A DNA stretch of 64,000 nucleotides, from assembly GCA_949292205.1 (NCBI GenBank), contig CASEYR010000008.1, positions 14,382 through 78,381 of the forward strand. Reading direction: 5' to 3'. The notes below the pieces were generated by a model, which had not been told where the DNA came from, did not search any database, and saw nothing but the letters and a program-made list of their open reading frames with translations. Each line of letters opens with the position of its first letter. Positions within the stretch are counted from its first letter, which is position 1. Shown here one piece after another: positions 9,698-52,276 of this stretch. The DNA is from an uncultured Alphaproteobacteria bacterium (GTDB taxonomy: Bacteria > Pseudomonadota > Alphaproteobacteria > CAAHEQ01 > UBA3637). The translations under genes and the position numbers were made by a program.

Positions 9698-10681
9698 ATG
9701 AAAAAAACCATAAAAATAAACTATATGGATTTCGGACGATATTCGGATCCGGAAAAGGAGTTCTTTACACCTTTTCTACGAAAAAGATATAATGTTGTTA
9801 TCTCGGATAAGCCGGATTATATCTTTTACACACTGGGCGGTAATACACACCACAACTTTTCGGGAATTCGTATCTTTTGGACGGGAGAAAATGTTGTTCC
9901 GAATTTCAATTACTGCGACTATGCTCTTGGCTTTCAACACATGACATTTGAGGATAGATATCATCGACTTCCCCTCTGGCGAATGTGCTTGTCCGATTTG
10001 AACAAGTCTTTAGAAAAAGGAACGACCCTATCTGATACTGCTCTTTTAAATCGTCAATTTTGTGCAACCGTTATTTCAAATGCACGCCAAACAGATGGAA
10101 AGCGAGAAGAAGCTTTTGAAAAACTATCCACATACAAAACCGTTGCCTCCGGCGGACGTTGGCGAAATAACGTCGGCGGACCGATCGCTGACAAAATAGT
10201 TTTTCAGCGTCAATATAAGTTCGCATTGGCTTTCGAAAATACATATGCTCCGGGATACACAACGGAAAAAATAATACAGGCCTTTGCCTCTGACACTGTC
10301 CCGATTTACTACGGAGATCCTCGTGTCACCGATGACTTTAATCCTGACTCTTTTATCAACGCTCATGATTTTGATACGACGGAACACTTGGTCGAGTTTG
10401 TCAAAAAAGTGGATCAAGATGACACGTTGTATTTAAAAATGATACATGCTCCGATTTTCAAAAACGGACAAATGCCGACTGATTTAACCGATGAGGCTCT
10501 TTTAAAATTCTTTGAACCGATTTTTGATGTTCCGCTTAAGGAAGCTAAAAGGCGTTTTTATGCAAAGCCCTATCAAGATATTGATTACGAAAACTTAAAA
10601 ATGCGAGACCTCAAAACAATGATTAAAACGTTCGGACAGAAACAAATTAAAAAGGTAAAGCACTTTATAATCGGCAAATAA
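9698..10681 (+). CDS. alpha-1,3-fucosyltransferase (glycosyltransferase family 10), Helicobacter FutA-like
   Basis: 327 aa. FWTGENVVPNFNYCDYALGF and YKFALAFENTYAPGYTTEKIIQAF...IPIYYGDPRVTDDFNP.SFINAHDF reproduce the GT10 motifs of H. pylori FucT. Confidence 0.85.
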   Translation: MKKTIKINYMDFGRYSDPEKEFFTPFLRKRYNVVISDKPDYIFYTLGGNTHHNFSGIRIFWTGENVVPNFNYCDYALGFQHMTFEDRYHRLPLWRMCLSDLNKSLEKGTTLSDTALLNRQFCATVISNARQTDGKREEAFEKLSTYKTVASGGRWRNNVGGPIADKIVFQRQYKFALAFENTYAPGYTTEKIIQAFASDTVPIYYGDPRVTDDFNPDSFINAHDFDTTEHLVEFVKKVDQDDTLYLKMIHAPIFKNGQMPTDLTDEALLKFFEPIFDVPLKEAKRRFYAKPYQDIDYENLKMRDLKTMIKTFGQKQIKKVKHFIIGK

Positions 10682-12464: not shown

Positions 12465-14063
12465 ATGATTCATTTTTGGTTCAGCTTTGGCTATATTGCC
12501 ACAATTGCATTTTTACCGCTACTATATGTATCGGCTAAAACCGTTACCTTTGAAAAAATAAAGGATATTTCTTTTTTACGTTTATTATGTAAAGATTTTA
12601 TCCGAACCCTTCCCGTCTGCTGTCTGATGATGATACCGATTTGTATCTATCCACCGATAACGCGTTGGTATCTTGGAGCGCTTCAGATTATATTTATGCC
12701 ACTAATGTTTGCCGAGCTGGGACATATTTATCTATTCGGAACACGTATCGGATTAAATACCTTTTTTACCTTTTTTGTTTCCAATATAAAAGAAACACGT
12801 GAATTTGTCAGTCAAAATATCCCTTCCATTTTATACATTGGCTTTACCTGCTTTTTCTTGATGCCATTCATCATCATTGCCAACATGCCGATTCCGATAT
12901 TCCAAAGTCTGTTCCTGCAAGTTCTTACCGTGCTTATTTTAAGCGCTTGTTCTTTTCCGTTTGTCCGTAATTTGGGACGTCGTTGGCCGAAATTTAAAGA
13001 TGCTTATATTTTAAATCCTTACAGTAATATCTTTTACCATTACTATGAGTATAAGAAAAACTATCAGGCTTTAAAACAAAAAATCGCAGAATATAGCGCT
13101 TCGGATTTTCCTAAAATCACATCGACTCTTTCCACCGATACACCACAAACATATATTATCGTTATCGGAGAATCTGCCAATAGAATGCATCATTCTTGGT
13201 ATGGATATGCCAGACGAACAAATGAATTTACCGAAACAATAAAAGACGAGCTTCTTATTTTTCCGAATGTCCGTTCTCCTTTTTCGCAAACAATGCCGTC
13301 TTTAGAGAGGACTTTAAGTTTTGCTGATTCAGATAACCCGAATTACCTCTATGAAAAAGGCAACATCATTGATTATTTTAAACAGGCTGGATTTAAAACC
13401 TATTGGTTATCTAATCAATACGCTTTGGATGATACAATCATCACGGCAATGGCTTCTCATGCTGATTATAGCAAGTACTTTAACTTCAGTGGTATGAAAC
13501 GCTTTGAAAAAGCGGGATTAGATGAAGCTATGCTACCGGATATTCAGAAAATCATTCAAAATGATGAAGCAAAAAAAGTCATCTTTGTCCATTTAATCGG
13601 ATCACATTCGGCTTATGTCAATCGCTATCCATCAGAGTTTAAGCACTTTACGGATACACTACCCGACAAAAAACTATCAGCGACAAATTATCAATTATTG
13701 AACGCCTATGATGATTCCATTCGATATACCGACTCAATTATCAGTCGTATCATCCAAATGTTGAAAAACAAAAGCGGTGTACAGTATATGCTATATTTTT
13801 CAGATCATGGAGAAGACATTTTTGATTCGACAACCGAAAGAATTTTAGGACACTCTGAACTAGCTAACGAGCCGATGACGGCGGTTCCGTTTATTTTGTG
13901 GCTATCGCCCACTCTGAAAAAATTACGTTCGGATATTATTCAACGTGCTGAAGAATCAAAAACAAGCTATAATCTGCAAGATGCCATTCATACAATTATT
14001 GATATTTCATCACTTAATAATACGGACTTTCATCCTGAAAAAAGTATTTTAACAAAAGACTGA
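12465..14063 (+). CDS. phosphoethanolamine transferase (EptA/sulfatase family), LPS/lipid A modification
   Basis: 532 aa. About 5 N-terminal TM helices plus a periplasmic sulfatase-type domain (HLIGSHSAY, YDDSIRYTDS, YFSDHGE). Confidence 0.8.
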   Translation: MIHFWFSFGYIATIAFLPLLYVSAKTVTFEKIKDISFLRLLCKDFIRTLPVCCLMMIPICIYPPITRWYLGALQIIFMPLMFAELGHIYLFGTRIGLNTFFTFFVSNIKETREFVSQNIPSILYIGFTCFFLMPFIIIANMPIPIFQSLFLQVLTVLILSACSFPFVRNLGRRWPKFKDAYILNPYSNIFYHYYEYKKNYQALKQKIAEYSASDFPKITSTLSTDTPQTYIIVIGESANRMHHSWYGYARRTNEFTETIKDELLIFPNVRSPFSQTMPSLERTLSFADSDNPNYLYEKGNIIDYFKQAGFKTYWLSNQYALDDTIITAMASHADYSKYFNFSGMKRFEKAGLDEAMLPDIQKIIQNDEAKKVIFVHLIGSHSAYVNRYPSEFKHFTDTLPDKKLSATNYQLLNAYDDSIRYTDSIISRIIQMLKNKSGVQYMLYFSDHGEDIFDSTTERILGHSELANEPMTAVPFILWLSPTLKKLRSDIIQRAEESKTSYNLQDAIHTIIDISSLNNTDFHPEKSILTKD

Positions 14064-19240: not shown

Positions 19241-20908
19241 TCAGACTCCTACTTTTTTCATAATGTATTTTTGTTGTGCAATTGATAGAATATTACTCCA
19301 AGTCCAATAGATAACCAATCCGGCAGCAAAATTACCCAACATGAACGTAAAAATAACCGGCATCATATTCATGATAATCTTTTGATTTTCATCTGTTGAC
19401 GGAGATGGATTCAAACGTTGTTGAATAACCATGGTTAACCCCATCAAAACAGGCCAAACACCAATATTTAAAACACTGGGAATCGGCCAAGGTAAATATC
19501 CGAATGCCGTAAAGACAGAGGACGGATCCGGAACGGACAGGTCTGTAATCCAACCAAAGAAAGGAGCTTGTCGCATCAAAATAGAAACAGACAAAACCTT
19601 ATACAAAGCAAAAAATACGGGAATCTGAATTAACAAAGGCAAACAGCCCGAAGCCGGATTAACTTTATCCCTTTTATACAAATTCATCATTTCCAACTGT
19701 AACTGTTGCTTATTGTCTTTGAATTTTTCTTGTAGCGCCTTAATTTTAGGTTGGATTTTTTTCATTTTTGCCATACTCTCATAGGACTTTGTCGCTATCG
19801 GCAACAATGCAATTCGCAACAAAGTTGCAAAAATCAAAATGGCAACACCCATATTTCCAACCAAAGAATACAAAAATCCCAAGAAATATAAGAATGGCTT
19901 TGTCAAAAAGTAGTACCAGCCAAAATCAATAGATAAATCAAACCGAGGAATTCCGGCATCGGTATATTGATTTAACAGTTGCAACTCTTTTGCACCGGCA
20001 AACAAGCTTGTCGTCTTTATCAGTGTTTCTCCGGGACGAATCGTTTCCGGCTTAGAAACAAAAGAAGCAATATAATCCTCGCCTTTCTTTAAAAAGGACA
20101 TATCCGATGTCATTGATTGATCGGGAACAAAAACAGCCTGCCAATACTTATCCGTAATACCGATCCAACCTCCTTTATTAACGGTTGAAAAAGGCTCATC
20201 ATCCTCTATATCCGTATATTTTTCTTCAACTTCTCGGTTATCGAAAAAGCCAAGAAACCCTTCATGAACAGAGGTTGCTTTGGTCGGAATCGTATCCTTT
20301 TTCCGAATAATTTGACCATTTAAAGTTGCTTGTACTGGTTCTGTTCCATGATTGGTAATTTTATCCGTCACCCGAAACAGATAGGCATCATCCAAAGCCA
20401 CAGTTCTCTCCACCGTAACCAAGCCGTTTGTCCACGTCAGAACAATCGGCGTAAAGGGAGTTAACTCATTTCCGGATACTTGCGGAGCCATACTGGTGTT
20501 TGGGAAATGAGCATCTGAACTAGTCCAATTTAATTGAGTCAAAAAACCTTTATTCAGCAAAGAAACGTATGGACTATTCTCGGCAGTTGTCTCGCGATAT
20601 TGTAGCAAAGAAAGAGAATCAAATTGCGTACCCGCCGCAGATAGTGATCCTGATACAAAGTCATTTTTAAGCGGAACAGTAACATTTTTCAACTCCTGAT
20701 TTTGAGGAGTTACTTGTTGAGCTTTTTGTTCAATCGCAACTCTTGATTCAGAATTCGCGGAAACAGGCTCTAACATAGATACATAAGCTTCCACTTTTTC
20801 CGAACGACTTGGAAAAAACCAATTAAAGCCCATCAAAACACCAATCACCAAAACAAGGGCGATCATCATACTTTTTTGTTCTTGTTTTTCTTGATCCAAA
20901 TGACTCAT
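19241..20908 (-). CDS. yidC: membrane protein insertase YidC
   Basis: 555 aa. N-terminal TM, large periplasmic domain, C-terminal 5-TM Oxa1 core ([16 protein letters not shown]). Confidence 0.9.
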
Positions 20909-21156
20909 TTTTCTTTCCTTTTAGATAACGGCGGCGGAACCGGATCATAGCCGGAACCCCCCCATGGATGACATCGCATTAAACGACGAACGGTTAACAT
21001 AGCACCTTTTATCGGTCCATGCAACAAAAAAGCCTCTCGCGCATAGGCTGAACACGTCGGATAAAAACGGCAACAAGGCGTTTTAAACGGAGATATTGCT
21101 ACTTGATAAATTCGAATACACCAACGACAGAGATTCCCGATAATTTTACCAATCAT
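20905..21156 (-). CDS. yidD: membrane protein insertion efficiency factor YidD
   Basis: 83 aa. YQ.AISP....[12 protein letters not shown]...HG..KG..L...RL.RCHPWG..G.DPVP. Confidence 0.85.
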
Positions 21157-21617
21157 ACCTTCTCCTGTTCAACGGAAAAGGAAGAGTTCAGAACAGATTG
21201 GACGGCTTCAATCAAGGTATCTGTTTTTATCTCCTTCTTTTTTTCCCGACTTAATTCGGCAGCCGTTCCTTTTGAAATTTGATGAATGGCATAAGATAAA
21301 TCTGATTTTAGCTTGTTAAACGGGCGATCAAAAGTCGATTTTCGACCGATAAAAACCAAATCGTATCCATCTAATTTTGTTATATCTGAAGATAACCGAA
21401 CAACCTCTCGCAAACGGCGACGAATTCTGTTTCTGACAACGGCACAACCAACTTTTTTTGTAACCGTAAACCCAATTCGAACACCTGGGATTTTCGTAGC
21501 ACAAACCTGAACAATCATTCCCGAAGTGATGACTTTTGTTCCCTTTTCGGCAACATGAAGAAACTGCTTTCTTTTCTTCATTCGAACAGTCTTGAACGAT
21601 GTTTGATCAGTCAACAT
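21153..21617 (-). CDS. rnpA: ribonuclease P protein component
   Basis: Start refined to MLTDQ... (ATG at 21617, RBS AAAGGGA). The upstream ATG at 21647 would lie inside the rpmH-rnpA hairpin. RnpA motif [21 protein letters not shown]. Confidence 0.8.
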
Positions 21618-26895: not shown

Positions 26896-29154
26896 TTAAA
26901 TTAAAATACCATGATCCCGCGCGTACATTTTCAACTTCTCACGCAAAGATCCCGACGTTATTTCCAGTTGTTTTTCCAGATACGCCGATAAATGCTTTTG
27001 ATCCATTGTCCGAATTGCCGCCTTTACCGGCCCTAATGATGAAGGAGTCATTGATAGCGAACGAAATCCCAATCCGACCAAAGCAACAGCCTCTAAACTG
27101 CGACTTGCCATCTCACCACACACTGAACAGGGAACGTGTGCCTGTTGACAGATATCACAAATATATTTCAATGCCTTTAATAAGGATGGAGACAGCGAAT
27201 CATAGCGATTCCAAATCATGGGATTTCCACGATCACATGCATATAAAAATTGAGCCAAATCATTCGTTCCGATAGAGATAAAATCAACTTCTCTAACCAA
27301 TTGTTCCATCTGAAAAATCAAGGATGGAACTTCTATCATTGTTCCCACGCGAATTATGCGCGGCAAAGTCCCACCGCGACGTTTTTCCCGTTCAACCTCC
27401 ATCATTAAGGTCTTACGTGCCTCAATAAACTCACGAACAGAGGCAATCATAGGAAACATTACATACAAATCTAACCCGGCTGCAGCCCGAATAAAAGCAC
27501 GCAACTGACTCCGTAGCAGAGCCCGTCTATCCAAAGTCATTCGAATAGAGCGCCACCCCATCGCCGGATTTTCCTCGGTATGACGTTGAAAGTAAGGCAA
27601 AACTTTATCCGATCCGATATCCAGCGATCGAAAAACAACCGGCTTATTTTGAGCCTGCATCAATGCTCGCCGATATATATCTTCTTGCGTTTTTACGTCC
27701 GGTAATTCTTCTGCAATCATAAATGGCAGTTCTGTTCTATATAAACCGACACCATCAAAAAAAACACCGTCGCCGACCATTAAGTCATTTGAGAGTCCAG
27801 CATTAATATTTAAAGACACGGTTGTTCCATCTCGTGTCGTTGCCGGCAAATCCTTCATTTGAGCATAACGTGCACGTAATTTTTTCTGATTTTGAGCTCG
27901 CTCACTTAAAACATCAAGCGTTTCATCCGATGGATTTAAATAGACATTACCGGCCGTTGCATCCAAAGCAACCGAATCGCCGTTTGAAATAATCTGAGCC
28001 ACGTTTTTGATACCGCAAACCAAAGGTATATTCAAAGAACGTGCCACAATAACCATATGCATGGTTTGGGAACCTTCCTCCAAAACAATTCCTTTAATTT
28101 TACTTTTATCATAATCTAACAACTCAGCCGGTCCTAAATTTTTAGCAATTAAAATCGTATTTCTGGGTATTTTTCTATTTTGAATAGATTTCGCCCGCCC
28201 CAAATGCCTCCTTAATCGTCCGACCAAGTCACGAAAATCATGAATCCTCTCTTTGATATAAGGATCTGTCATTAGCTCCATCCTATCGGTAATTTCATCG
28301 CCCACTTTTTGAACTGCCGCATCTGCCGTTAAACCGGTTTCAATGGCTTTTATCATCTTGGCAATCCAACCTTTATCTTTGATAAACATCAAATATGTTT
28401 CAAAAATAGCCGATTGATCACCACTCATATGCGATGTTGCCAAAATCTTATTGACTTCACACTCAACTCGCTCTAACGCTTGCATTAATTTTTGAATTTC
28501 TTTTTGAGCATCTCCCGATAAAACCTGAACAACCTGCTCGGCTCTCTTATGAACCAAAGCTTGTCCGATAGCAAAACCATCAATTAAACCAGTACCTTCT
28601 ATTTTTTGTCGTCCACCAACCGACAACGTATCTGAATCAGATTTCTTAAATTGCTGACTCGCCAGCATTTCAGCCAAAACCATACCTATAGTTTCCAGCA
28701 ATTCAATCATTTCAGATGAGAAAGTTTGTATTTTTCGTGTTTGAATAGCCAACACACCCAAAATGCGATTAGCACGAATAAGTGGAACACCAACCAATGA
28801 TTTAAATTGTTTTTCTTTCGTCTCTGGCTTATACACAAAGCTGGTGTGGGACCAAACATCTTCAACGGCTAATGGTTTACGCTGTAATGCAATCTCGCCG
28901 ACAAGACCTTCCCCAATTCTCAAAAAAGTTTCATGAACGGCTTTCTTATCTAATCCGTATGTTGCACATAGTTCCAGTATTCCGCCGGGACGAGAAATAT
29001 AACAAGAACAAACATCAACATTTAATCGTTGAGCAACCTGTTCTACTATTTTATCTAATCGTTCCTGTGGAGGCATATCTCGAGCAGTTAATGCCCGCAA
29101 AGACTTCATAATTTGCCGAACAGAAATCATATCATGCAAACGGTTGCGATCCAT
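26896..29154 (-). CDS. ptsP: phosphoenolpyruvate-protein phosphotransferase PtsP (EI-Ntr) with N-terminal GAF domain
   Basis: 752 aa. GAF, then a PEP-utilizing enzyme domain (mobile His region, PEP-binding TIM barrel CGEMA). Confidence 0.9.
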   Translation of the reverse strand: MDRNRLHDMISVRQIMKSLRALTARDMPPQERLDKIVEQVAQRLNVDVCSCYISRPGGILELCATYGLDKKAVHETFLRIGEGLVGEIALQRKPLAVEDVWSHTSFVYKPETKEKQFKSLVGVPLIRANRILGVLAIQTRKIQTFSSEMIELLETIGMVLAEMLASQQFKKSDSDTLSVGGRQKIEGTGLIDGFAIGQALVHKRAEQVVQVLSGDAQKEIQKLMQALERVECEVNKILATSHMSGDQSAIFETYLMFIKDKGWIAKMIKAIETGLTADAAVQKVGDEITDRMELMTDPYIKERIHDFRDLVGRLRRHLGRAKSIQNRKIPRNTILIAKNLGPAELLDYDKSKIKGIVLEEGSQTMHMVIVARSLNIPLVCGIKNVAQIISNGDSVALDATAGNVYLNPSDETLDVLSERAQNQKKLRARYAQMKDLPATTRDGTTVSLNINAGLSNDLMVGDGVFFDGVGLYRTELPFMIAEELPDVKTQEDIYRRALMQAQNKPVVFRSLDIGSDKVLPYFQRHTEENPAMGWRSIRMTLDRRALLRSQLRAFIRAAAGLDLYVMFPMIASVREFIEARKTLMMEVEREKRRGGTLPRIIRVGTMIEVPSLIFQMEQLVREVDFISIGTNDLAQFLYACDRGNPMIWNRYDSLSPSLLKALKYICDICQQAHVPCSVCGEMASRSLEAVALVGLGFRSLSMTPSSLGPVKAAIRTMDQKHLSAYLEKQLEITSGSLREKLKMYARDHGILI

Positions 29155-32227: not shown

Positions 32228-32258
32228 GAAAAAAGAGGTCTTTTATGACCTCTTTTTC
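32228..32258. terminator. palindromic intrinsic terminator closing the secreted-protein operon
   Basis: AAAAAGAGGTC-ttttat-GACCTCTTTTT. A/T runs on both sides. Confidence 0.7.
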
Positions 32259-32267
32259 CGTTAGCTA

Positions 32268-33780
32268 TTACTCTGACTGAATAGTAGCACAATCAACTAA
32301 AGCACCGTTGCAAGCACAATCATCAGCCGCCTGAGCACAACTATGTTCATCGTTCAAGAATCGAACGTAAAGAGGACGCTGATAATAAGCCGTTGTCACG
32401 GGTCCGGCAGTCGTCACGGGTCCGGCAGTCGTCACGGGAGCCGTTGTCTCAGGAGCCGTTGTCGTTGTCGGAGCCGTTGTTGTCGTTGTCGGTGTAGCCG
32501 TCGTTGTTGTTGAAAGTGGTCTAGAGAAACTTGTCACCGTTGAGTACTCATTACTGACAGGATTAGACACAGACGATCCTTTTGACGATGTTGACTCAAA
32601 CAACGGATAGGTTGTTCTTGGATACGTCGTTGAGGTCGACTCTGTCATGGTTGACGTTGTCGTTGAGTGTGACGTTGTCGACGGCAACGTTGAATACGAC
32701 GTTGAGTGTGACGTTGTCGACGGCAACGTTGAATACGACGTTGAGTGTGACGTTGTTGACGGCAACGTTGAATACGACGTTGAGTATGACGTTGTCGACG
32801 GCAACGTTGAATACGACGTTGAGTATGACGTTGTCGACGGCAACGTTGAATACGACTGTCGACGGCAACGTTGAATACGACGTTGAGTGTGACGTTGTTG
32901 ACGGCAACGTTGATACCTCTGTCATGGAAGAAATCGTTGACGGCAACGTTGAATACGACGTTGTTGACGGCGACGTTGAATATGACGTTGTTGACGGCGA
33001 CGTTGATACCTCTGTCACGGAAGAAACCGTTGACGGCAACGTTGAGTGTGACGTTGTTGACGGCGACGTTGAATACGACGTTGAGTATGACGTTGTTGAC
33101 GGCGACGTTGATACCTCTGTCACGGAAGAAATCGTTGACGGCGACGTTGATACCTCTGTTACGGAAGAAACCGTCGACGGCGACGTTGATACCTCTGTCA
33201 CGGAAGAAATCGTTGACGGCGATGTTGATACCTCTGTTACGGAAGAAACCGTCGACGGCGACGTTGAATCAGGCGGTGGCGTTGTTGTCGTTTGAATATC
33301 AGCACACTGACAAGACCCATCTATATACATCGGCATCTGACTGGGATGACATGTAACACATGATGGACAACATTGTGCCCTATTCTGCTGATCCGGAGCA
33401 TAACAACCACTGGGACAAGATACATCCCCACCGATAACACTGCTTGTTATTACATCACCCAGCGTTGAAATCACATCGCCTTGTATCGTGGTATCCCCTA
33501 ATATAGTAGAGGTTGTATCCCCCACAACAGTGGAAGATGTATCCCCAAGTGTTGTCGTGGAATCATCCGCAAATGTTGTCGTTTCAAAGAACGGCGTGGA
33601 TGACATACCACATCTGGGATCCGATGGATTTTCCTCACAATAACAGACGCATCGCCCGTCAACAAATCCAACCGGATCAAACTCACACTTGTCAGGCGCA
33701 CAACATACCTCTGCCGTCCATCCGACCTGTGACAAAATCAACGGGATGACCGCCACCCCTGCCATTAAAACGATACGCAT
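32268..33780 (-). pseudogene. secreted mucin-like Ser/Thr-rich repeat protein with N- and C-terminal Cys-rich domains; frameshifted
   Basis: ORF 32596..33780 (signal peptide, CC-containing Cys domain, VSSVTEVSTSPST repeats) and ORF 32268..32843 (STLPSTTSYSTSY repeats, TTTAP linker, C-terminal Cys domain) are one gene. They are split by a frame change at about 32857, where a 39-nt repeat unit lacks 14 nt. Confidence 0.75.
32640..33280. repeat. two families of 39-nt (13-codon) tandem repeats
   Basis: About 7 copies of GTTGAGTGTGACGTTGTCGACGGCAACGTTGAATACGAC, then about 8 copies of GTTGACGGCGACGTTGATACCTCTGTCACGGAAGAAATC-type units. One unit at 32857..32881 is truncated to 25 nt. Confidence 0.9.
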
Positions 33781-35022
33781 TTAATCCTCCTTTTGACGTC
33801 CCGATGTCGTCGGTGCCGCCTGCATAACATTTACCTGACGCACCAAACGGGGCGTTCCTTTGGGTTGTTTCAGGGTATAGATAAACTCTTTATTTTTAAT
33901 TGAATCCGTTAACAACTTTTCTGCCGGCGGAATAACCCTATCCAACTGGCGTTTTAATACCGTCAACACCTTTGCCCGATTTGGGGTCCATTGATTTTGG
34001 GATTTTAAATAATCCGGTTCATTGGCGATAGCCGATTTCAACACATCCAAACTCTTTTGTGCCCGTGTATATTGAATATACCGCATTTTTACCAATGATT
34101 CATACTCATGATCCACCATATCCAGATTAAGCAAAACCAAACTATCCACCACCTTCATTCGGCGATATTCGGAATGAAAGAAACAACCGGACGGGTCATC
34201 AATTTTTCCTGTTTCTATTTGTGAAACATCATAAATCGGATACCCCCATCGGGTTTGCATATCCCGTTTCCGTTCATCAACCAATTCGGCAGGAACTTCC
34301 GCCAACTTGTCCCCCGTAATTAAATACTTTTCGGGGATAAACTTGCCCCCGTATTCATTCCGATGAAACATATCCATATTCGGCACAAAGAACGGCACAT
34401 CAAATAAAAAGGACATATTTTCATTCACAACATCCCGCAGTGTTTCGGCATACGCCCGTTCATCAGGGGTAAATGTATTCAGGACTTTATCCGGTATTGT
34501 AAAAAACGGTTGCGCCCCTTGAACCGGTTCAAAAACCGCCATCATTTTACCGGCATCCAATTTAAAATGATACACGACAACGCGATTTTTATATAAACTT
34601 AACCGAAAGTCATCACCCCAATACAGCCCGCTTGCCCCCGGTCCCCAATACCAATTACCTTGATTCGCCCGAATCAAAGCCATATAATGCGGGGGAATTT
34701 TATCATAGTTAGAGGAAGCCTCCATTTTTTGATTAATATACGGTATTTTTTCAGGATCACGGGTCCGTCGCGGTGGGAAAGCAGCCGTTGCCAAATGTTT
34801 TGCAACAAAGTCATCTATACCGGTTAACGGGATATCAACGGATTCCGTTTTGGGACGGGATATCCCCTTGCCCATCCGTTGTCCCCCGACGGAAGCCAAC
34901 ATCACCCGATTTCTGGCGCCTGTCTGTCCCGTATATCTACCGGATGCCCCCATGACCGGTGTCGTCGTCATAACCGCCATTGCCAATAAACTTAACATCG
35001 TCTTTTTTGCCTGATATCCCAT
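33781..35022 (-). CDS. secreted hypothetical protein (413 aa)
   Basis: N-terminal signal peptide (MKKTMLSLLAMAVMTTTPVMGASG). No recognisable domain. Its stop abuts the ATG of the mucin-like gene (TAAATG). Confidence 0.55.
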   Translation of the reverse strand: MGYQAKKTMLSLLAMAVMTTTPVMGASGRYTGQTGARNRVMLASVGGQRMGKGISRPKTESVDIPLTGIDDFVAKHLATAAFPPRRTRDPEKIPYINQKMEASSNYDKIPPHYMALIRANQGNWYWGPGASGLYWGDDFRLSLYKNRVVVYHFKLDAGKMMAVFEPVQGAQPFFTIPDKVLNTFTPDERAYAETLRDVVNENMSFLFDVPFFVPNMDMFHRNEYGGKFIPEKYLITGDKLAEVPAELVDERKRDMQTRWGYPIYDVSQIETGKIDDPSGCFFHSEYRRMKVVDSLVLLNLDMVDHEYESLVKMRYIQYTRAQKSLDVLKSAIANEPDYLKSQNQWTPNRAKVLTVLKRQLDRVIPPAEKLLTDSIKNKEFIYTLKQPKGTPRLVRQVNVMQAAPTTSGRQKED

Positions 35023-35036
35023 GTTTTTACTCCTTT

Positions 35037-35885
35037 TTATTCGTCCTTAACTTCACCACATCCTGCCGGCACCCATTCACCGTTGTCATCTTTACCGGTA
35101 CACTTGGGGCAACATTCGCACGTTGTTACACCATCACCATCTTCATCATTACAATTATACAGCTCACCGGCACAACAGGCAGACTCACCAGCTCCATTCA
35201 CATACGCTTTTTCACCGTCCGGACAACCCTCGCACTTACCATCTTTAATGCTTGCCTTGTCACAACAAACGTATTCACCGGCATCATTTTTGGCAATGTC
35301 TTCACTGGCTTCACAACACAACGCCACCCCTTCCTTTTCACGCAATACTTCCGAGGCATCGCAACAATATTCTATTCCATTTGAACTTATATATGGAACT
35401 TCCCCATCCTTACAACACGAAGCCTTACATGACTTTGTTCCATCATCTTCCACACACACTTTGTTCGGAGATATACAACATGCCTCTATCCTAGAAGTAG
35501 GGGTTGGATTATACTTTTCCGCATCAGCTGGACAACAACCATATGTATAAGCTAAAACTCCAGATGGACATGTTCTAGTCCCCGCGATATACCATTGCAG
35601 TTCAGCACTATCATCATCACCACCACAGCACGGCGTTCCATCCGGCGCTAAATTTGAACAGAACAAACCGCCACAAGAAGATCGACAACACCCAGCATGT
35701 ACAGCACAATCATCTGCCCCAAAACAAACTTCTTTAGAACACTCCGAATATCCAGAGGGGCAGTTTATCACATCATCTTCTTCCGATGCATCAACTGGAC
35801 ATGCATCAAAAATCTGAGCACTGCCAGAAAAGCTATAAGCAATAAGAAACAATAGTACATATATCCATATCTTCATATACACCAT
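35037..35885 (-). CDS. secreted cysteine-rich protein with CC doublets (282 aa)
   Basis: Signal peptide, then about 45 Cys, many as CC pairs (CCKDG, CCDAS, CCEAS, CCDKA, CECCPKC). Start 4 nt after the stop of the upstream gene. Confidence 0.6.
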   Translation of the reverse strand: MVYMKIWIYVLLFLIAYSFSGSAQIFDACPVDASEEDDVINCPSGYSECSKEVCFGADDCAVHAGCCRSSCGGLFCSNLAPDGTPCCGGDDDSAELQWYIAGTRTCPSGVLAYTYGCCPADAEKYNPTPTSRIEACCISPNKVCVEDDGTKSCKASCCKDGEVPYISSNGIEYCCDASEVLREKEGVALCCEASEDIAKNDAGEYVCCDKASIKDGKCEGCPDGEKAYVNGAGESACCAGELYNCNDEDGDGVTTCECCPKCTGKDDNGEWVPAGCGEVKDE

Positions 35886-35889
35886 CCTA

Positions 35890-37416
35890 TTATTCAGAAA
35901 CTATATCTTCATTTTCATCTTCATTTTCATCTTCATTTTCATCTTCATTTACTTCAATACTAGAGCCTAAAACAGAACATGGTGGACTATAGTATCCTGT
36001 CCCTGATTTAGTAGATATGGCACAAACAACCGGATAATATTCTATCTTATCACATCCGCAATTAGCCGTCGGCTTCACACAGATGGGGGCAATCCTAGCT
36101 AGATGATGCGTCCACGATGGAGCACAACCATAAATCAAATAACTACATAGACCAGAATAATAAACCTCATTAGATAACAGTACCTCACCCGGTTTACAAG
36201 GAGAGCAAGCCTCATTCTGAGGAACACCGTTACAACAATACTGTCCCGCATTCAAACATGTTCTACCACACAAACCATGAACACAACACTGACCTGTATC
36301 AGATTTTTCACCATCGCAACTGCCGATTCCACCCATACCGGGCTCATCATTACCACTATTACCACCACTGCTGCCGCCATCTTCGACATCACAAAACTCA
36401 TTGTCCGGAAGACAAACATTTTCGCACTCATTCGTTCTATCAGGGCAAGAGCAATAGCTACCTGATTGTCCCTTAACCGTATAGGGGCAATCCTCTTTAC
36501 AACACCCATCTACGCACTCATACGGCCTATCCGTCGGGCATCCACCACACGACTCACCGTCCGGAATACAAACACCTTCGCAATCATACGTTCCATCAGG
36601 GCAAGAGCAATAGCTACCTGATTGTCCCTTAACCGTATAAGGACAATCCTCTTTACAACAATCGTCCTCACACTCATACGGTGTCGTTACAAGGCATCCG
36701 TCACCAGAACAGAATCCCGCATCATCACAATCATCGCAACACTTTAAATCCGACGGACACAAAATCGTCCCATACGAACATCCGCCCTGACAATCCGTTC
36801 CAAAGCACAAAATAAACGGTGTCCGAGCTTCCCCTTCGGGATTTTCAGCATTCGGTCGAGACGGACTCCGCTTTGCCGGATCCACAATCTCACAAAACGC
36901 ATCAACTTCATCCTCGTCAGAGGTTGTATATACAAATTTGTTTGAATCGCTCAACCTTGCCGATGTATACTCTAAATTTGCACGCAATAGCTTACGACAA
37001 ACATTCCATGTCATTTCCTCAACATAGACTTCAAATGTCTTTTTGTTAATAACATCAACAAAAATCTCGGCCCCCGTCGGCGTCGTAAAACCATAGATCG
37101 TTCCATCCGCTTCCGGTTCTAAAAAGGTAACACCGCTAATCACTTCTTTGATCGGGATCTGGATACGCCCCCCTGCCTCGGCACGTTCACCATACTTGTC
37201 CGTAATAAATCCCGTTCGCGATCCAACGATTGATTTAACAACCCAGTCAACGGTTTCATTTTCTTTATGGAGTTCAATAGCGTAATGGTATCCCCACAAT
37301 GCCGTTATAGACAAAACACCGACAATAGCCAGTGTTGCCAACATTTCAATCATGGTCCTACCCGATTCGCCTTTCAAATCACCTTGAAGCACGCGAAATC
37401 CCTTAAACATACCCAT
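35890..37416 (-). CDS. prepilin-like N-terminus fused to a disulfide-rich repeat domain (508 aa)
   Basis: N-terminus MGMFKGFRVLQGDLKGESG|RTMIEMLATLAIVGVLSITALWGY: short basic leader, Gly, Glu at +5, about 20 hydrophobic residues (class III signal-like). About 150-aa domain, then Cys-rich modules with a 52-aa internal duplication (YEC.DDCCKEDCPYTVKGQSGSYCSCPD) and an (EDEN)4 acidic tail. RBS GGGGGT. Confidence 0.6.
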   Translation of the reverse strand: MGMFKGFRVLQGDLKGESGRTMIEMLATLAIVGVLSITALWGYHYAIELHKENETVDWVVKSIVGSRTGFITDKYGERAEAGGRIQIPIKEVISGVTFLEPEADGTIYGFTTPTGAEIFVDVINKKTFEVYVEEMTWNVCRKLLRANLEYTSARLSDSNKFVYTTSDEDEVDAFCEIVDPAKRSPSRPNAENPEGEARTPFILCFGTDCQGGCSYGTILCPSDLKCCDDCDDAGFCSGDGCLVTTPYECEDDCCKEDCPYTVKGQSGSYCSCPDGTYDCEGVCIPDGESCGGCPTDRPYECVDGCCKEDCPYTVKGQSGSYCSCPDRTNECENVCLPDNEFCDVEDGGSSGGNSGNDEPGMGGIGSCDGEKSDTGQCCVHGLCGRTCLNAGQYCCNGVPQNEACSPCKPGEVLLSNEVYYSGLCSYLIYGCAPSWTHHLARIAPICVKPTANCGCDKIEYYPVVCAISTKSGTGYYSPPCSVLGSSIEVNEDENEDENEDENEDIVSE

Positions 37417-37450
37417 TGAGCACCCCCAAAAAAAGAATACTTTTATTTAC

Positions 37451-37478
37451 TTTACTTTTGAGTATACCGCTTTTTTCA
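37451..37478 (-). promoter_or_regulatory. near-consensus sigma70 promoter for the secreted-protein operon
   Basis: Minus-strand TTGCAT-16nt-TATACT, about 35 nt upstream of the 37416 start codon. Confidence 0.6.
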
Positions 37479-37508: not shown

Positions 37509-37787
37509 CTAAAAAACCTCTCCGAAGCGATTATCCACCAAAAGACTTAGTGCTTCTACCGCTTGACCGGCGTCCTCACCCTCCGCCGTTATCTTAATTG
37601 TATCTCCCAAAGGGACTGCTAACATCAAAAGTCCCATTATGGATTTTCCGGAAGCACTCTGACCATCTTGCTTTTCTACGGAAATATCCGACCGAAACGT
37701 CTCGGCCACCTTGACAAATGCCGCTGTTGCACGAGCGTGAAGTCCTTTTAAATTCTGAATCTTTACCGTTCGAGTGACCGTGTCCAT
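37509..37787 (-). CDS. phosphocarrier protein HPr/NPr
   Basis: 92 aa. Active-site His in GLHARATAAFV. Confidence 0.8.
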   Translation of the reverse strand: MDTVTRTVKIQNLKGLHARATAAFVKVAETFRSDISVEKQDGQSASGKSIMGLLMLAVPLGDTIKITAEGEDAGQAVEALSLLVDNRFGEVF

Positions 37788-38189
37788 CTAATTATCCAAT
37801 CTTAATAAATGTGACGCTATATTGATATACTTACGCCCCGCTTCCTGTGCTGCCAAAACAGCATCCGGAACAGTTTCTGTGCGTTCACGCATTAGCTTAA
37901 CCAACATCGGTATATTCATTCCGGACACAACCTCTATATTACACTCCTCCATAATAGAAATAGCTAAGTTAGACGGTGTCCCCCCAAACATATCCGTGAT
38001 AACAACTACACCATCCCCCGTATCAACAGCGGCTGTCTTTTCCAAGATCTCTCGTCTTTTTTGCTCCATATCGTCATCGGGGTTAATTCCCACACACTCA
38101 ACACCCGTTTGCGGACCAACAACATGCTGTGTTACCGCCAACATCTCTTGAGCTAACCGACCATGTGTTACTAAAACGATACCTATCAT
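37788..38189 (-). CDS. PTS EIIA component, mannose/fructose family
   Basis: 133 aa. MIGIVLVTHG...; PF03610-like N-terminus with the conserved His. Confidence 0.75.
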   Translation of the reverse strand: MIGIVLVTHGRLAQEMLAVTQHVVGPQTGVECVGINPDDDMEQKRREILEKTAAVDTGDGVVVITDMFGGTPSNLAISIMEECNIEVVSGMNIPMLVKLMRERTETVPDAVLAAQEAGRKYINIASHLLRLDN

Positions 38190-38192
38190 TAT

Positions 38193-38660
38193 TTACTCCT
38201 TTTCAATCAATGTTGTCGTCAATTTTAATTTTTGCATTGACAACTGCATGATAGTCCATGCTTGATCTACCAAAGCCGGATGACTTTTCCAAAGTCGATA
38301 AGCCGGCACTTTATGCTCCCCCAAAAACTCGATATTTTGCTCAGGCAATCGCTCTGGGCATTCATCTACCAACTCAATAACCGCTGCAACAGGAGCATTT
38401 GCACAAACCTTAAATCCAGACACTATCCCGATTGAACGAACTTCCAAACAACCGATACCACGTTCCGGCAAAACTGCCAGTAAATCTGTTCCGCTCTCAG
38501 TAAGCTGCGTTACATCATCCGAAACCAACAAAGCCCCTCGATATATGAGTTGAAGAGCCAACGAAGACTTTCCCGAACCAGACCTCCCCCGAATCAGAAA
38601 AGCATGATTATCCAAACAAATACTTGTTGCAGCAATCTGTTGTGCAAAGGAAGCCTTCAT
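38193..38660 (-). CDS. hprK: HPr kinase/phosphorylase, short alphaproteobacterial form (C-terminal kinase domain only)
   Basis: 155 aa. P-loop [19 protein letters not shown]. Gene order hprK-EIIA(Man)-npr is the alphaproteobacterial arrangement. Confidence 0.8.
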   Translation of the reverse strand: MKASFAQQIAATSICLDNHAFLIRGRSGSGKSSLALQLIYRGALLVSDDVTQLTESGTDLLAVLPERGIGCLEVRSIGIVSGFKVCANAPVAAVIELVDECPERLPEQNIEFLGEHKVPAYRLWKSHPALVDQAWTIMQLSMQKLKLTTTLIEKE

Positions 38661-50856: not shown

Positions 50857-52020
50857 CTAACCCGATGTGGGTGGTGTACATGTTCCATTATTCCACTCAC
50901 CCGTCCATGTTCCTCCACATGATTCACACTGAGCCTTGTATTGTAAGGAACCAACCTCTACGGTTGAACAATCCTCACACTTACCACCGACAGAAACTGT
51001 CCCATCAGCACATCGCCTGCAATAACCTCCGCCATATGCAAAATTACACCAATTACATGCTGTTCCAACTCCGGTCATACCAACCGGATTATCCCAAACA
51101 TATCCATCATCATTCCCTTCATCACAGGCATAACATCTTCCACCCTGACTATTAACGCCATGTAACGGCTTATCAATAGGACATTTACACACCCCATTTA
51201 CCTCTATCATCCCCTCGGGACACTCTAAACGACAATAAAAGGCTGAATCTGAAACTCTATTTGGACACATCGAACAAGCCTGTCCCGCTGGAAAATAGAA
51301 TACAGTCTCAGAATAACAATCTATGCATTGCCCATTATTTTTATTGGGCATAAATTGTCCCGGAGGACAACACAAGCCATTCCAACTCACACAACAAGTT
51401 TTTTCACCTTTTTCATTTTCAGAAACAGAGCTGCAACAAAAACCATCTATCATTTTATCAGTAGAACAACAAACCTTACTGTGAGCATTATTAATATCAA
51501 TACCACATTCCTGTCCATCGGGACAACTTTCTTGACAGACACCATCAATACAATCATCGCACTTAGATGAACAATCCGATTTCTTTGTACAATGTTCCGG
51601 TTTTTCTGCTGAGGCCCCCAAAGTACTCGTAAATTCAAACTGTATCCGATTTGTTTCTTGACATATATCTGCATTATTCTGAGCTATTGTATCCCCCACA
51701 TAAATAGCTATCGGTAATTTAAAGTCCGCTCTGACAATTTGCTCACAAACGCCTTGTGGAATATCGGAAAGTGTAATAGCAAAGAAATTGTCACTCAATA
51801 AAAGCTGTTGAACAGGATACCCCTGCTCCGTTTCTGATTTAAACTCTGGCGTATCTACCGTTCTCCCAACCATTAATTTTTGTGAAATAATAATGGCTCG
51901 TTTTTTAACCTCATTGATAATCTCATTGGATTGATACTTATCCATAGCCCAGCGATAACCCATAATGCCACCGATTGCCAAGACACCCATCAAAGCCAGA
52001 ACGCCCAGCATTTCCACCAT
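50857..52020 (-). CDS. paralog of the prepilin-like/Cys-rich secreted protein (387 aa)
   Basis: MVEMLGVLALMGVLAIGGIMGY... parallels MIEMLATLAIVGVLSITALWGY of the 35890..37416 protein. C-terminal half has many CC doublets. In-frame upstream codons encode ...KENESGRS with no ATG/GTG/TTG. Confidence 0.55.
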   Translation of the reverse strand: MVEMLGVLALMGVLAIGGIMGYRWAMDKYQSNEIINEVKKRAIIISQKLMVGRTVDTPEFKSETEQGYPVQQLLLSDNFFAITLSDIPQGVCEQIVRADFKLPIAIYVGDTIAQNNADICQETNRIQFEFTSTLGASAEKPEHCTKKSDCSSKCDDCIDGVCQESCPDGQECGIDINNAHSKVCCSTDKMIDGFCCSSVSENEKGEKTCCVSWNGLCCPPGQFMPNKNNGQCIDCYSETVFYFPAGQACSMCPNRVSDSAFYCRLECPEGMIEVNGVCKCPIDKPLHGVNSQGGRCYACDEGNDDGYVWDNPVGMTGVGTACNWCNFAYGGGYCRRCADGTVSVGGKCEDCSTVEVGSLQYKAQCESCGGTWTGEWNNGTCTPPTSG

Positions 52021-52276
52021 GCTTCGTCCCGATTCATTCTCTTTACTTCTCTTTATTCGGGTATATGTTTCACTTAATTCTACATTAAATTGTTACGATT
52101 TCAGGCGTTAACTCATCTCGTGTAAAAATAGAACACAAGTCTTTTAATCTTTTTCTTTTTTCTCTTGACTTATCTGTCCCGTTCGTGCTATCTCTTTCCG
52201 TAACGGTTTAATGTTCCTTTTTTTGTTATAATCATTTTCGGATACTAACAATTCATAATTTACTGATTTTTTTATT

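Follow-up and report, generated by a model that had tools for sequence, protein, structure and literature searches.

The 64,000-nucleotide (nt) stretch of contig CASEYR010000008.1 analysed here (assembly GCA_949292205.1, positions 14,382 to 78,381; hereafter the window) derives from an uncultured alphaproteobacterium, and carries on its minus strand four consecutive genes, designated P1 to P4, which lie head to tail with intergenic gaps of 4, 14 and 0 nt (TAAATG at the P3-P4 junction). From the sequence we propose, with a probability of about 0.45, that the proteins of this cluster are exported and make up a surface or adhesion module of disulfide-rich and mucin-like character, with a modular type IV pilin, the product of P1, as lead component. 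Each of the four products has exactly one N-terminal hydrophobic segment and no further membrane-spanning stretch, as judged by hydropathy and inspection, and scans of all four, together with a P1 paralog, against Pfam, NCBIfam, PHROGs and PADLOC returned the class III signal motif only. What is new here is a putative modular pilin variant with a cysteine-rich cargo and with partner proteins outside the known families. An earlier reading of this DNA, made by a model without database searches (the sequence-only reading), had given the same gaps, had predicted a signal peptide or signal anchor on every product and had been able to name no family for them. These claims were borne out, as were the open reading frames (ORFs) of P1, P2 and P3; the fourth is not the single intact ORF that was described, since it is frameshifted.

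The best-supported assignment of P1, from sequence and structural modelling, is to the modular type IV pilins, with a type IVb-like character. Its parts are, in order, a 19 amino acid (aa) leader, the sequence G/RTMIE (the slash marks the predicted cleavage site), a hydrophobic alpha1-N segment, a pilin module of about 200 aa, a proline-rich linker and about 300 aa of cysteine-rich modules. The leader (MGMFKGFRVLQGDLKGESG) is hydrophilic, basic or neutral, and terminated by glycine, giving the class III signal ESG/RTMIE; the mature N-terminus (RTMIEMLATLAIVGVLSITAL) has glutamate at +5, and the hydrophobic segment covers residues 22-42 with its hydropathy maximum at 29-40. We aligned 15 members of the family, including the paralog and the 13 homologs which were found among 1.84 billion proteins. 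E24 (+5), M22, L26, L29 and G33 are invariant and G19 (-1) and R20 (+1) nearly so. Within the pilin module C140 and C175 are also invariant, and would sit where pilins carry their C-terminal disulfide loop. The class III signal model TIGR02532 (IPR012902) scored 16.8 bits, just over its cutoff of 16.3.

The AlphaFold2 (AF2) model of P1 shows helices at residues 22-67 and 69-82 and strands at 109-163, the N-terminal 200 residues or so having predicted local distance difference test (pLDDT) values of 65-88. When this model was compared with the PDB using Foldseek, the top six matches were all type IVb pilins (TcpA, the type IVb pilin of enterotoxigenic Escherichia coli and S. typhi PilS), with probabilities of 0.60-0.99, at least 0.90 in five of the six, and target-normalised template modelling (TM) scores of 0.36-0.49. 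The model is thus suggestive of a pilin fold, that is, a long alpha1 helix and a beta-sheet domain. A profile of the N-terminal module searched against PDB sequences found pilins only and nothing homologous beyond the N-terminal helix; in these sequence searches, made with the P1 N-terminal and P3 profiles, TcpA was a marginal match (E 0.18). No confirmed match to the pilin module was present in JGI metagenome contigs. The sequence-only reading had called P1 prepilin-like on account of its basic leader, Glu+5 and hydrophobic tract, a description upheld by the conserved class III motif, the TIGR02532 score just above cutoff and the type IVb Foldseek matches.

Contigs from related metagenome-assembled genomes (MAGs), given L-numbers, were compared with the window. 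One of them, L014, belongs to the same species: it agrees with the window at 98% of nucleotides over 10 kb, and LysS, HprK, EIIA and HPr show 99-100% identity. The cluster proteins of these two strains show 96% identity for P3, 60% for P2 and 58% for the C-terminus of P1. In a blastn alignment the 98% identity stops at 36351 and restarts, at 96%, at 35342; between these points there is no nucleotide similarity, and L014 carries 1135 unrelated nt in place of the window's segment. The synonymous substitution rate (dS) between the strains is 0.01-0.05 in the flanking genes, 0.19 in codons 1-205 of P1, 0.29 in codons 206-355 and 1.9 from codon 356 to the end, reaches 2.2 in the N-terminal part of P2 (the last two values being saturated), and falls to 0.05 in the last 100 codons of P2 and 0.10 in P3. 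The ratio of nonsynonymous to synonymous rates (dN/dS) is 0.23-0.6 in every segment, the hypervariable block included. We interpret the P1/P2 block as old alleles which were imported by recombination and are under purifying selection. Saturated dS with dN/dS below 0.6 is not the pattern of decay or of recent positive selection in place. A silent cassette or shufflon was rejected: the 64-kb window holds no copy of the L014 allele elsewhere, no recombinase and no inverted-repeat shufflon. By analogy, such an allele swap is typical of exposed ligand-binding or antigenic surfaces, and it fits the surface or host-interaction role which had been suggested for these proteins.

The cluster is retained in other MAGs. 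All four genes follow HprK-EIIA-HPr in the window and L014, and lie after ftsZ-rsmB and before batA in L002 and L008. L015 and L016 have P1 with P3-like and P4-like genes and no P2, again after HprK-EIIA-HPr; L017 and L018 have P1, P3-like and P4-like genes; and L019 and L020 have P1 and a P4-like gene after rsmB. P1-like and P4-like genes are therefore adjacent in five of five lineages, with a P3-like gene between them in four, so that the constant pair is a pilin-like and a mucin-like protein, usually with a P3-like protein in between. This synteny spans lineages in which FtsZ is only about 74% identical. The families are rare and lineage-restricted, with 13 homologs of P1, two of P2 and 50 representative sequences of P3 in the 1.84 billion proteins, which agrees with the lineage restriction proposed earlier. 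A literature search on gut Alphaproteobacteria genomes and cysteine-rich class III signal proteins found nothing relevant.

Table 1. Coordinates of the P1-P4 cluster and associated features in the window
Feature	Position	Strand	Remarks
P1, 508 aa, putative modular type IV (IVb-like) pilin	35890..37416	-	class III signal, TIGR02532, Foldseek
P2, 282 aa, exported, Cys-rich (predicted)	35037..35885	-	279 aa if ATG at 35876
P3, 413 aa, exported (predicted), family-less	33781..35022	-	signal peptide, alpha/beta core
P4, mucin-like	32268..33780	-	as read: ORFs 32596-33780 (394 aa) and 32268-32843
Hypervariable allelic segment	35343..36350	-	P1 C-terminal ~150 codons and P2 N-terminal ~180 codons
P1 internal 156-nt tandem duplication	36396..36681	-	Tandem Repeats Finder: 1.8 copies, 87% identical
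P1 paralog, pilin-like module and Cys-rich tail (34 Cys)	50857..52056	-	directly downstream of rsmB
Promoter-like site TTGCAT-16 nt-TATACT	37451..37478	-	upstream of P1; hexamers kept in L015/L016
Intrinsic terminator hairpin AAAAAGAGGTC-ATAAAA-GACCTCTTTTT, then T-run	32228..32259	-	RNAfold free energy (dG) -18.4 kcal/mol

The cysteine-rich parts of the cluster were examined further (Table 1). P1 contains 46 cysteines (9.1%), 43 of which are located in the roughly 300 residues after the proline-rich linker; the internal tandem duplication encodes a 52-aa module with a pattern of cysteine spacing and eight cysteines per copy. P2 has 36 cysteines (12.8%), and in this protein CC doublets recur every 14-15 residues, with 10 observed against 4.4 expected from composition (p=0.005), which confirms the earlier description of P2 as rich in such doublets. 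In the other proteins the doublets remain at the level of composition (P1, 5 vs 4.1; P4, 2 vs 0.5; the paralog, 4 vs 3.3), and pairwise comparison of the cysteine-rich parts of P1, P2, P4 and the paralog revealed no significant similarity (best E 0.05). The idea of a family united by CC doublets across three of the proteins and the paralog is thus not supported, the excess being confined to P2. A database search with P2 gave two matches, one of which is P2 itself, and direct comparison added the syntenic homologs in L002 and L008; P2 is 30% identical to the 279-aa protein of L002, and a public protein collection holds the 279-aa form of P2 that starts at 35876. Since the cysteine counts of both P1 and P2 are even and neither has a further membrane-spanning segment, the two proteins are probably exported and disulfide-rich. 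Metallothionein-like metal binding was rated unlikely on the basis of the signal peptides, the even cysteine counts, the modelled beta-hairpin modules and the hypervariability.

P4 consists of a signal peptide, two cysteine-rich modules (with seven and eight cysteines), about 290 aa of Ser/Thr/Pro repeats and a C-terminal end with four cysteines. As read, the gene has a net -2 frameshift at 32856/32857, inside the Ser/Thr repeat array, where the 394-aa ORF leaves the Ser/Thr frame for a hydrophobic out-of-frame tail while the repeats and the cysteine-containing C-terminus run on in the frame of the second ORF. Adding AC, the two nucleotides expected from the repeat unit, yields a single 504-aa ORF whose stop codon lies 9 nt before the terminator. 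The restored protein has 19 cysteines, and residues 171-460 are 63% Ser+Thr; P4 contains 34-49% Ser+Thr, and there are tandem repeats of 27 and 39 nt. Its N-terminal module shows 42% identity to the syntenic 394-aa protein of L002. At related loci, five independent assemblies break off within the P4-like gene, which indicates that the repeat array is hard to assemble; an assembly error is plausible, and the frameshift may reflect such an error, a pseudogene or phase variation. The earlier description of a mucin-like protein with cysteine-rich ends thus holds for the composition, but not for an intact gene, as the C-terminal cysteine end is in the other frame. From its composition, P4 is probably glycosylated.

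The model of P3 has a pLDDT of 78, and comprises a disordered start as far as residue 65 or so (pLDDT <50), an alpha/beta core, a long helical hairpin (residues 302-376) and a conserved C-terminal TSGRQKED. Comparison of the model with the PDB gave no fold match, and Pfam, NCBIfam, PHROGs and PADLOC were also without match, in agreement with the sequence-only reading, which had recognised no domain. Based upon the model, P3 is a candidate new fold or family. The window protein is 68% identical to a stand-alone homolog (L007, 8001-9209) on a contig of 63% GC which is labelled Ca. Spyradenecus, Lentisphaerota, compared with 52% to P3 in the syntenic cluster of L008 (6748-8028), even though FtsZ is 74% identical between window and L008; the P3-like gene of L015 (12082-12456), the nearest other species, is 38% identical, and this in the core only. 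That P3 is closer to the Lentisphaerota-labelled copy than to L008 suggests horizontal exchange, either as cross-phylum transfer or as replacement within the slot. Two leads to its function were dropped: the fusions of distant P3 homologs to TIR, ankyrin or thioredoxin domains give no coherent functional hint, and a catalytic cysteine is not supported, the sole candidate, C280, not being conserved in distant relatives. About 8 kb from one stand-alone P3 homolog, L004 encodes Flp-type pilins (G/QTMVEY) and a TadE-like protein (19419-20242); their leader differs from the G/R[ST]M.EML class. The 90% identity cluster of P3 in the protein collection also holds unrelated 270-aa GH16 glycoside hydrolases, and its 503-aa member P0128 is a chimera in which a glycosyltransferase fragment is joined to P3, a clustering or assembly artefact.

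The P1 paralog (Table 1) shows 27% identity to the N-terminal domain of P1 over 164 aa (E 4e-10). The ATG at 52020 is preceded, in frame, by its class III motif, IKRSKENESG/RSMVEML. No ATG, GTG or TTG was found ahead of this motif, the sole candidate start being an ATA at 52056. The sequence-only reading had recognised a distant paralog at 50857..52020; the relationship stands by way of the pilin module and not through CC doublets. In L002, L008 and L019 the whole cluster occupies the position after rsmB at which the window has the paralog, which could be what is left of the ancestral site. L002 has a third gene of this leader type (MKKMTMKHNEPG/RTMVEMLGVLSIVGVLS; 21040-21281), the start of a 1024-aa protein with faint ankyrin matches. 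These genomes would thus carry several pilin-like proteins which differ in their C-terminal cargo.

The site upstream of P1 had been described as a near-consensus sigma70 promoter. This was too strong, as only eight of the 12 positions agree with the consensus (3/6 and 5/6) and a promoter scan did not report the site; promoter-like sites in the region were no more frequent than expected from shuffled sequence. It does pass a phylogenetic footprint test at the sequence level: L015 and L016, with LysS 94% identical, keep the two hexamers and their spacing of 16 nt although spacer and flanks have diverged, and in L002 and L008 the corresponding site, which follows a tRNA gene and terminator, reads TTGATT-17-TATACA. 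The palindromic terminator previously placed at 32228..32258 proved to be real, with a 13-bp stem followed by a T-run; the built-in scan did not list it. Being palindromic, it is usable from both strands. Strong Shine-Dalgarno sequences precede P3 and P4. Gene spacing and the conserved promoter suggest that P1 to P4 are co-transcribed. Rfam and tRNA scans of the window found three tRNAs only and no RNA element in the cluster.

Upstream of the cluster are tRNA-Arg and genes for a short HprK, EIIA(Man) and HPr, and downstream are slyX and dapF. The minus strand encodes PtsP with a GAF domain at 26896-29154, and a 155-aa HprK (C-terminal domain only), EIIA(Man) and HPr at 37509-38660. A nitrogen-type phosphotransferase system (PTS) set with a short HprK-EIIA(Man)-HPr and PtsP, and also SlyX, is typical of Alphaproteobacteria; the related MAG L008 is labelled Alphaproteobacteria, and the window's PTS set and SlyX fit this label. 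The host itself probably lives in the gut. In an otherwise housekeeping stretch of the plus strand are a GT10 alpha-1,3-fucosyltransferase (9698-10681) and a sulfatase (12465-14063), which may have a part in the mimicry or foraging of host glycans and in glycosylating Ser/Thr-rich proteins. A phage origin of the cluster was rejected, there being no P3 relative among viral contigs and no PHROGs match, as was a defence system, PADLOC being without match.

If the proposal is correct, P1 would insert into the inner membrane by means of its observed class III signal and be cleaved after Gly19 by a prepilin peptidase encoded elsewhere. It would then join a type IV filament as a minor, probably tip-located subunit, with the filament displaying its disulfide-knotted C-terminal modules of about 300 aa. 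P2, P3 and P4, in which inspection reveals an N-terminal hydrophobic signal-like segment, would be exported by Sec. P2 and P4 may serve as strain-variable partners or coat components, the former cysteine-rich and the latter Ser/Thr-rich and probably glycosylated, and P3 as a conserved accessory protein with a novel fold. All of the genes would be read in a single transcript, from one promoter ahead of P1 to one terminator, and the P1 C-terminus and P2 N-terminus would be mutually unalignable old alleles exchanged between strains by recombination. A wider interpretation is that uncultured gut bacteria, with MAGs labelled Alphaproteobacteria, have an undescribed surface system, in which an Arg+1 type IVb-like pilin has interchangeable disulfide-knotted heads and is accompanied by a mucin-like glycoprotein and a new-fold P3 exchanged across phyla, while balanced polymorphism at the P1/P2 junction sets strain-specific host, mucus or phage recognition; taken as a whole, we consider this rather unlikely.

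Several observations weigh against a pilin-led surface module. No prepilin peptidase, assembly ATPase, platform protein, secretin or major pilin is encoded in the 64-kb window, in which the ORFs scanned were all housekeeping or unrelated and no type IVb pilus operon context is present, and none of these genes was found at the related loci, in flanks of 10 kb. The sequence-only reading had regarded the lack of such machinery in the genome as evidence against itself, and for the window and the related 10-kb flanks that lack was found. Because no pilus genes lie near the cluster, filament display of P1 is something that we infer; adhesion, glycosylation, disulfide bonding and a single transcript are predictions too. 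The Pfam N_methyl score of P1 (14.0 bits) falls under the threshold of 21.2, the overall pLDDT of its AF2 model is 53.7, which is low confidence, and the Foldseek E-values range from 4e-3 to 3.5e-2, none being <= 0.001, so that the structural evidence is suggestive and not strong. To our knowledge bacterial pilins rarely have arginine at +1, a residue conserved across the P1 family. In the window, P4 carries a frameshift. Finally, P3 homologs occur alone, with no P1-like gene nearby, on higher-GC contigs labelled Lentisphaerota or Kiritimatiellia, and distant homologs of the P3 core are fused to TIR, ankyrin or thioredoxin domains, both of which indicate that P3 is not a dedicated pilus component.

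Some of these points would suit an unpolymerised P1, acting as an uncleaved signal anchor or a cleaved pseudopilin-like anchor, with P1 to P4 forming a disulfide-cross-linked periplasmic or envelope layer, comparable in principle with that of other cysteine-rich envelope proteins, instead of an adhesin displayed on a filament. Such a layer would explain the want of filament machinery near the cluster in every lineage examined and the atypical arginine, and it is consistent with the position of the cluster directly after dcw cell-division genes and rsmB in three lineages, with the odd cysteine count of P4 (its seven-cysteine N-terminal module, also found in L002, could form intermolecular disulfides), and with a paralog which has no canonical start codon before its leader. 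We nevertheless hold it to be somewhat unlikely. G-1 and E+5 are needed for prepilin peptidase recognition and filament assembly, and a plain membrane anchor would not need them, yet the former is nearly invariant and the latter invariant. A full pilin-like globular module with its two invariant cysteines has been retained, and allelic hypervariability suits exposure at the cell surface better than a buried envelope component. Kinship with the chlamydial cysteine-rich outer membrane proteins OmcA/OmcB was rejected, as P1, P2, P4 and the paralog have no Pfam match (E<=1) besides N_methyl. Purifying selection, with dN/dS at 0.23-0.6 throughout, also speaks against a decaying remnant, in which P4 would be a pseudogene, the paralog would have lost its start and the divergence would reflect relaxed constraint. 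P3 is 96% identical between strains, synteny extends across lineages with FtsZ at about 74% identity, and the promoter hexamers are conserved. The P4 frameshift and the absence of an ATG, GTG or TTG ahead of the paralog's class III motif would fit decay; the frameshift, however, sits in the repeat array where five independent assemblies break, and could plausibly be an assembly error. It would also fit decay that the exact P1 and P4 proteins (several start positions were tried) are absent from a collection of 15 billion proteins which does contain P2, P3, the paralog, LysS and FtsZ of the same 101-kb contig. On balance decay appears very unlikely.

A secretion pair similar to TcpB-TcpF or CofB-CofJ would make P1 a large tip minor pilin, and P2, P3 and/or P4 soluble colonisation factors which use a flexible N-terminal segment to dock on its C-terminal domain and are pushed out as the pilus grows; CofJ and TcpF are treated in three papers (PMC6048534, PMC9565799, PMC10120004). 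The P1 pilin module finds its best structural matches among type IVb pilins, P1 resembles type IVb minor pilins in its size and extra C-terminal domains, and the partner genes adjoin P1 in several lineages. CofJ and TcpF have a flexible N-terminal signal, and mature P3 likewise starts with about 40 disordered residues. In known type IVb systems, however, minor pilin and partner are both encoded in the pilus operon, and no such operon is found here; TcpB, CofB, TcpF and CofJ gave no sequence match in the PDB searches with the P1 N-terminal and P3 profiles; and P3 exists alone in genomes without a P1-like gene nearby. This arrangement therefore seems distinctly unlikely, and a surface module led by a modular pilin is the reading that we prefer.

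Should P1 indeed be displayed on a filament, it would represent a new kind of modular-pilin cargo, namely tandem disulfide-knotted modules, accompanied by partner genes in a fixed set, and would come from a never-cultured gut lineage. The two-gene allelic block of about 1 kb could serve as a marker for strain typing, and is a candidate for what makes strains differ in colonisation or in susceptibility to phage. P3, which is confidently modelled, has no Pfam or PDB relative and has about 50 representatives in 1.84 billion proteins, is of interest as a candidate new fold or family. The findings have no bearing on any long-standing open question.

Modular pilins have been defined with PilB and PilC of Streptococcus sanguinis (Raynaud et al. 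2021, PMC8179133), and P1 resembles them in having a pilin module, a linker and a grafted module. Its graft differs in being about 300 aa of cysteine-rich sequence without a database signature rather than a vWA or lectin domain, its +1 residue is arginine, and it heads its own cluster with three family-less exported proteins, outside a pilus operon. With the TcpA/TcpB/TcpF and CofA/CofB/CofJ systems P1 shares a long leader (19 aa), a +1 residue other than phenylalanine, type IVb structural matches, large size, extra C-terminal domains and a location beside genes for putative Sec-exported proteins. Unlike these toxin-coregulated pilus (TCP) and colonisation factor antigen III (CFA-III) systems, it has no detectable homology to them beyond the N-terminal helix and no neighbouring assembly genes, and its partners are cysteine-rich or mucin-like and unrelated to TcpF and CofJ. 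P4 matches no family and its gene is frameshifted in this assembly, but with about 290 aa of 63% Ser+Thr between cysteine-rich flanking modules it is similar in kind to the mucin-like, Ser/Thr-rich repeat proteins of bacterial and eukaryotic cell surfaces. Pili are known to vary by allele or cassette, as in the PilV shufflon of R64 and the pilin allele groups of Pseudomonas and Neisseria. P1 is comparable in that its presumably exposed C-terminal part is wholly different between near-identical strains; it differs in that the P1/P2 block has the appearance of old alleles brought in by homologous replacement, and in that it extends over the junction of two genes.

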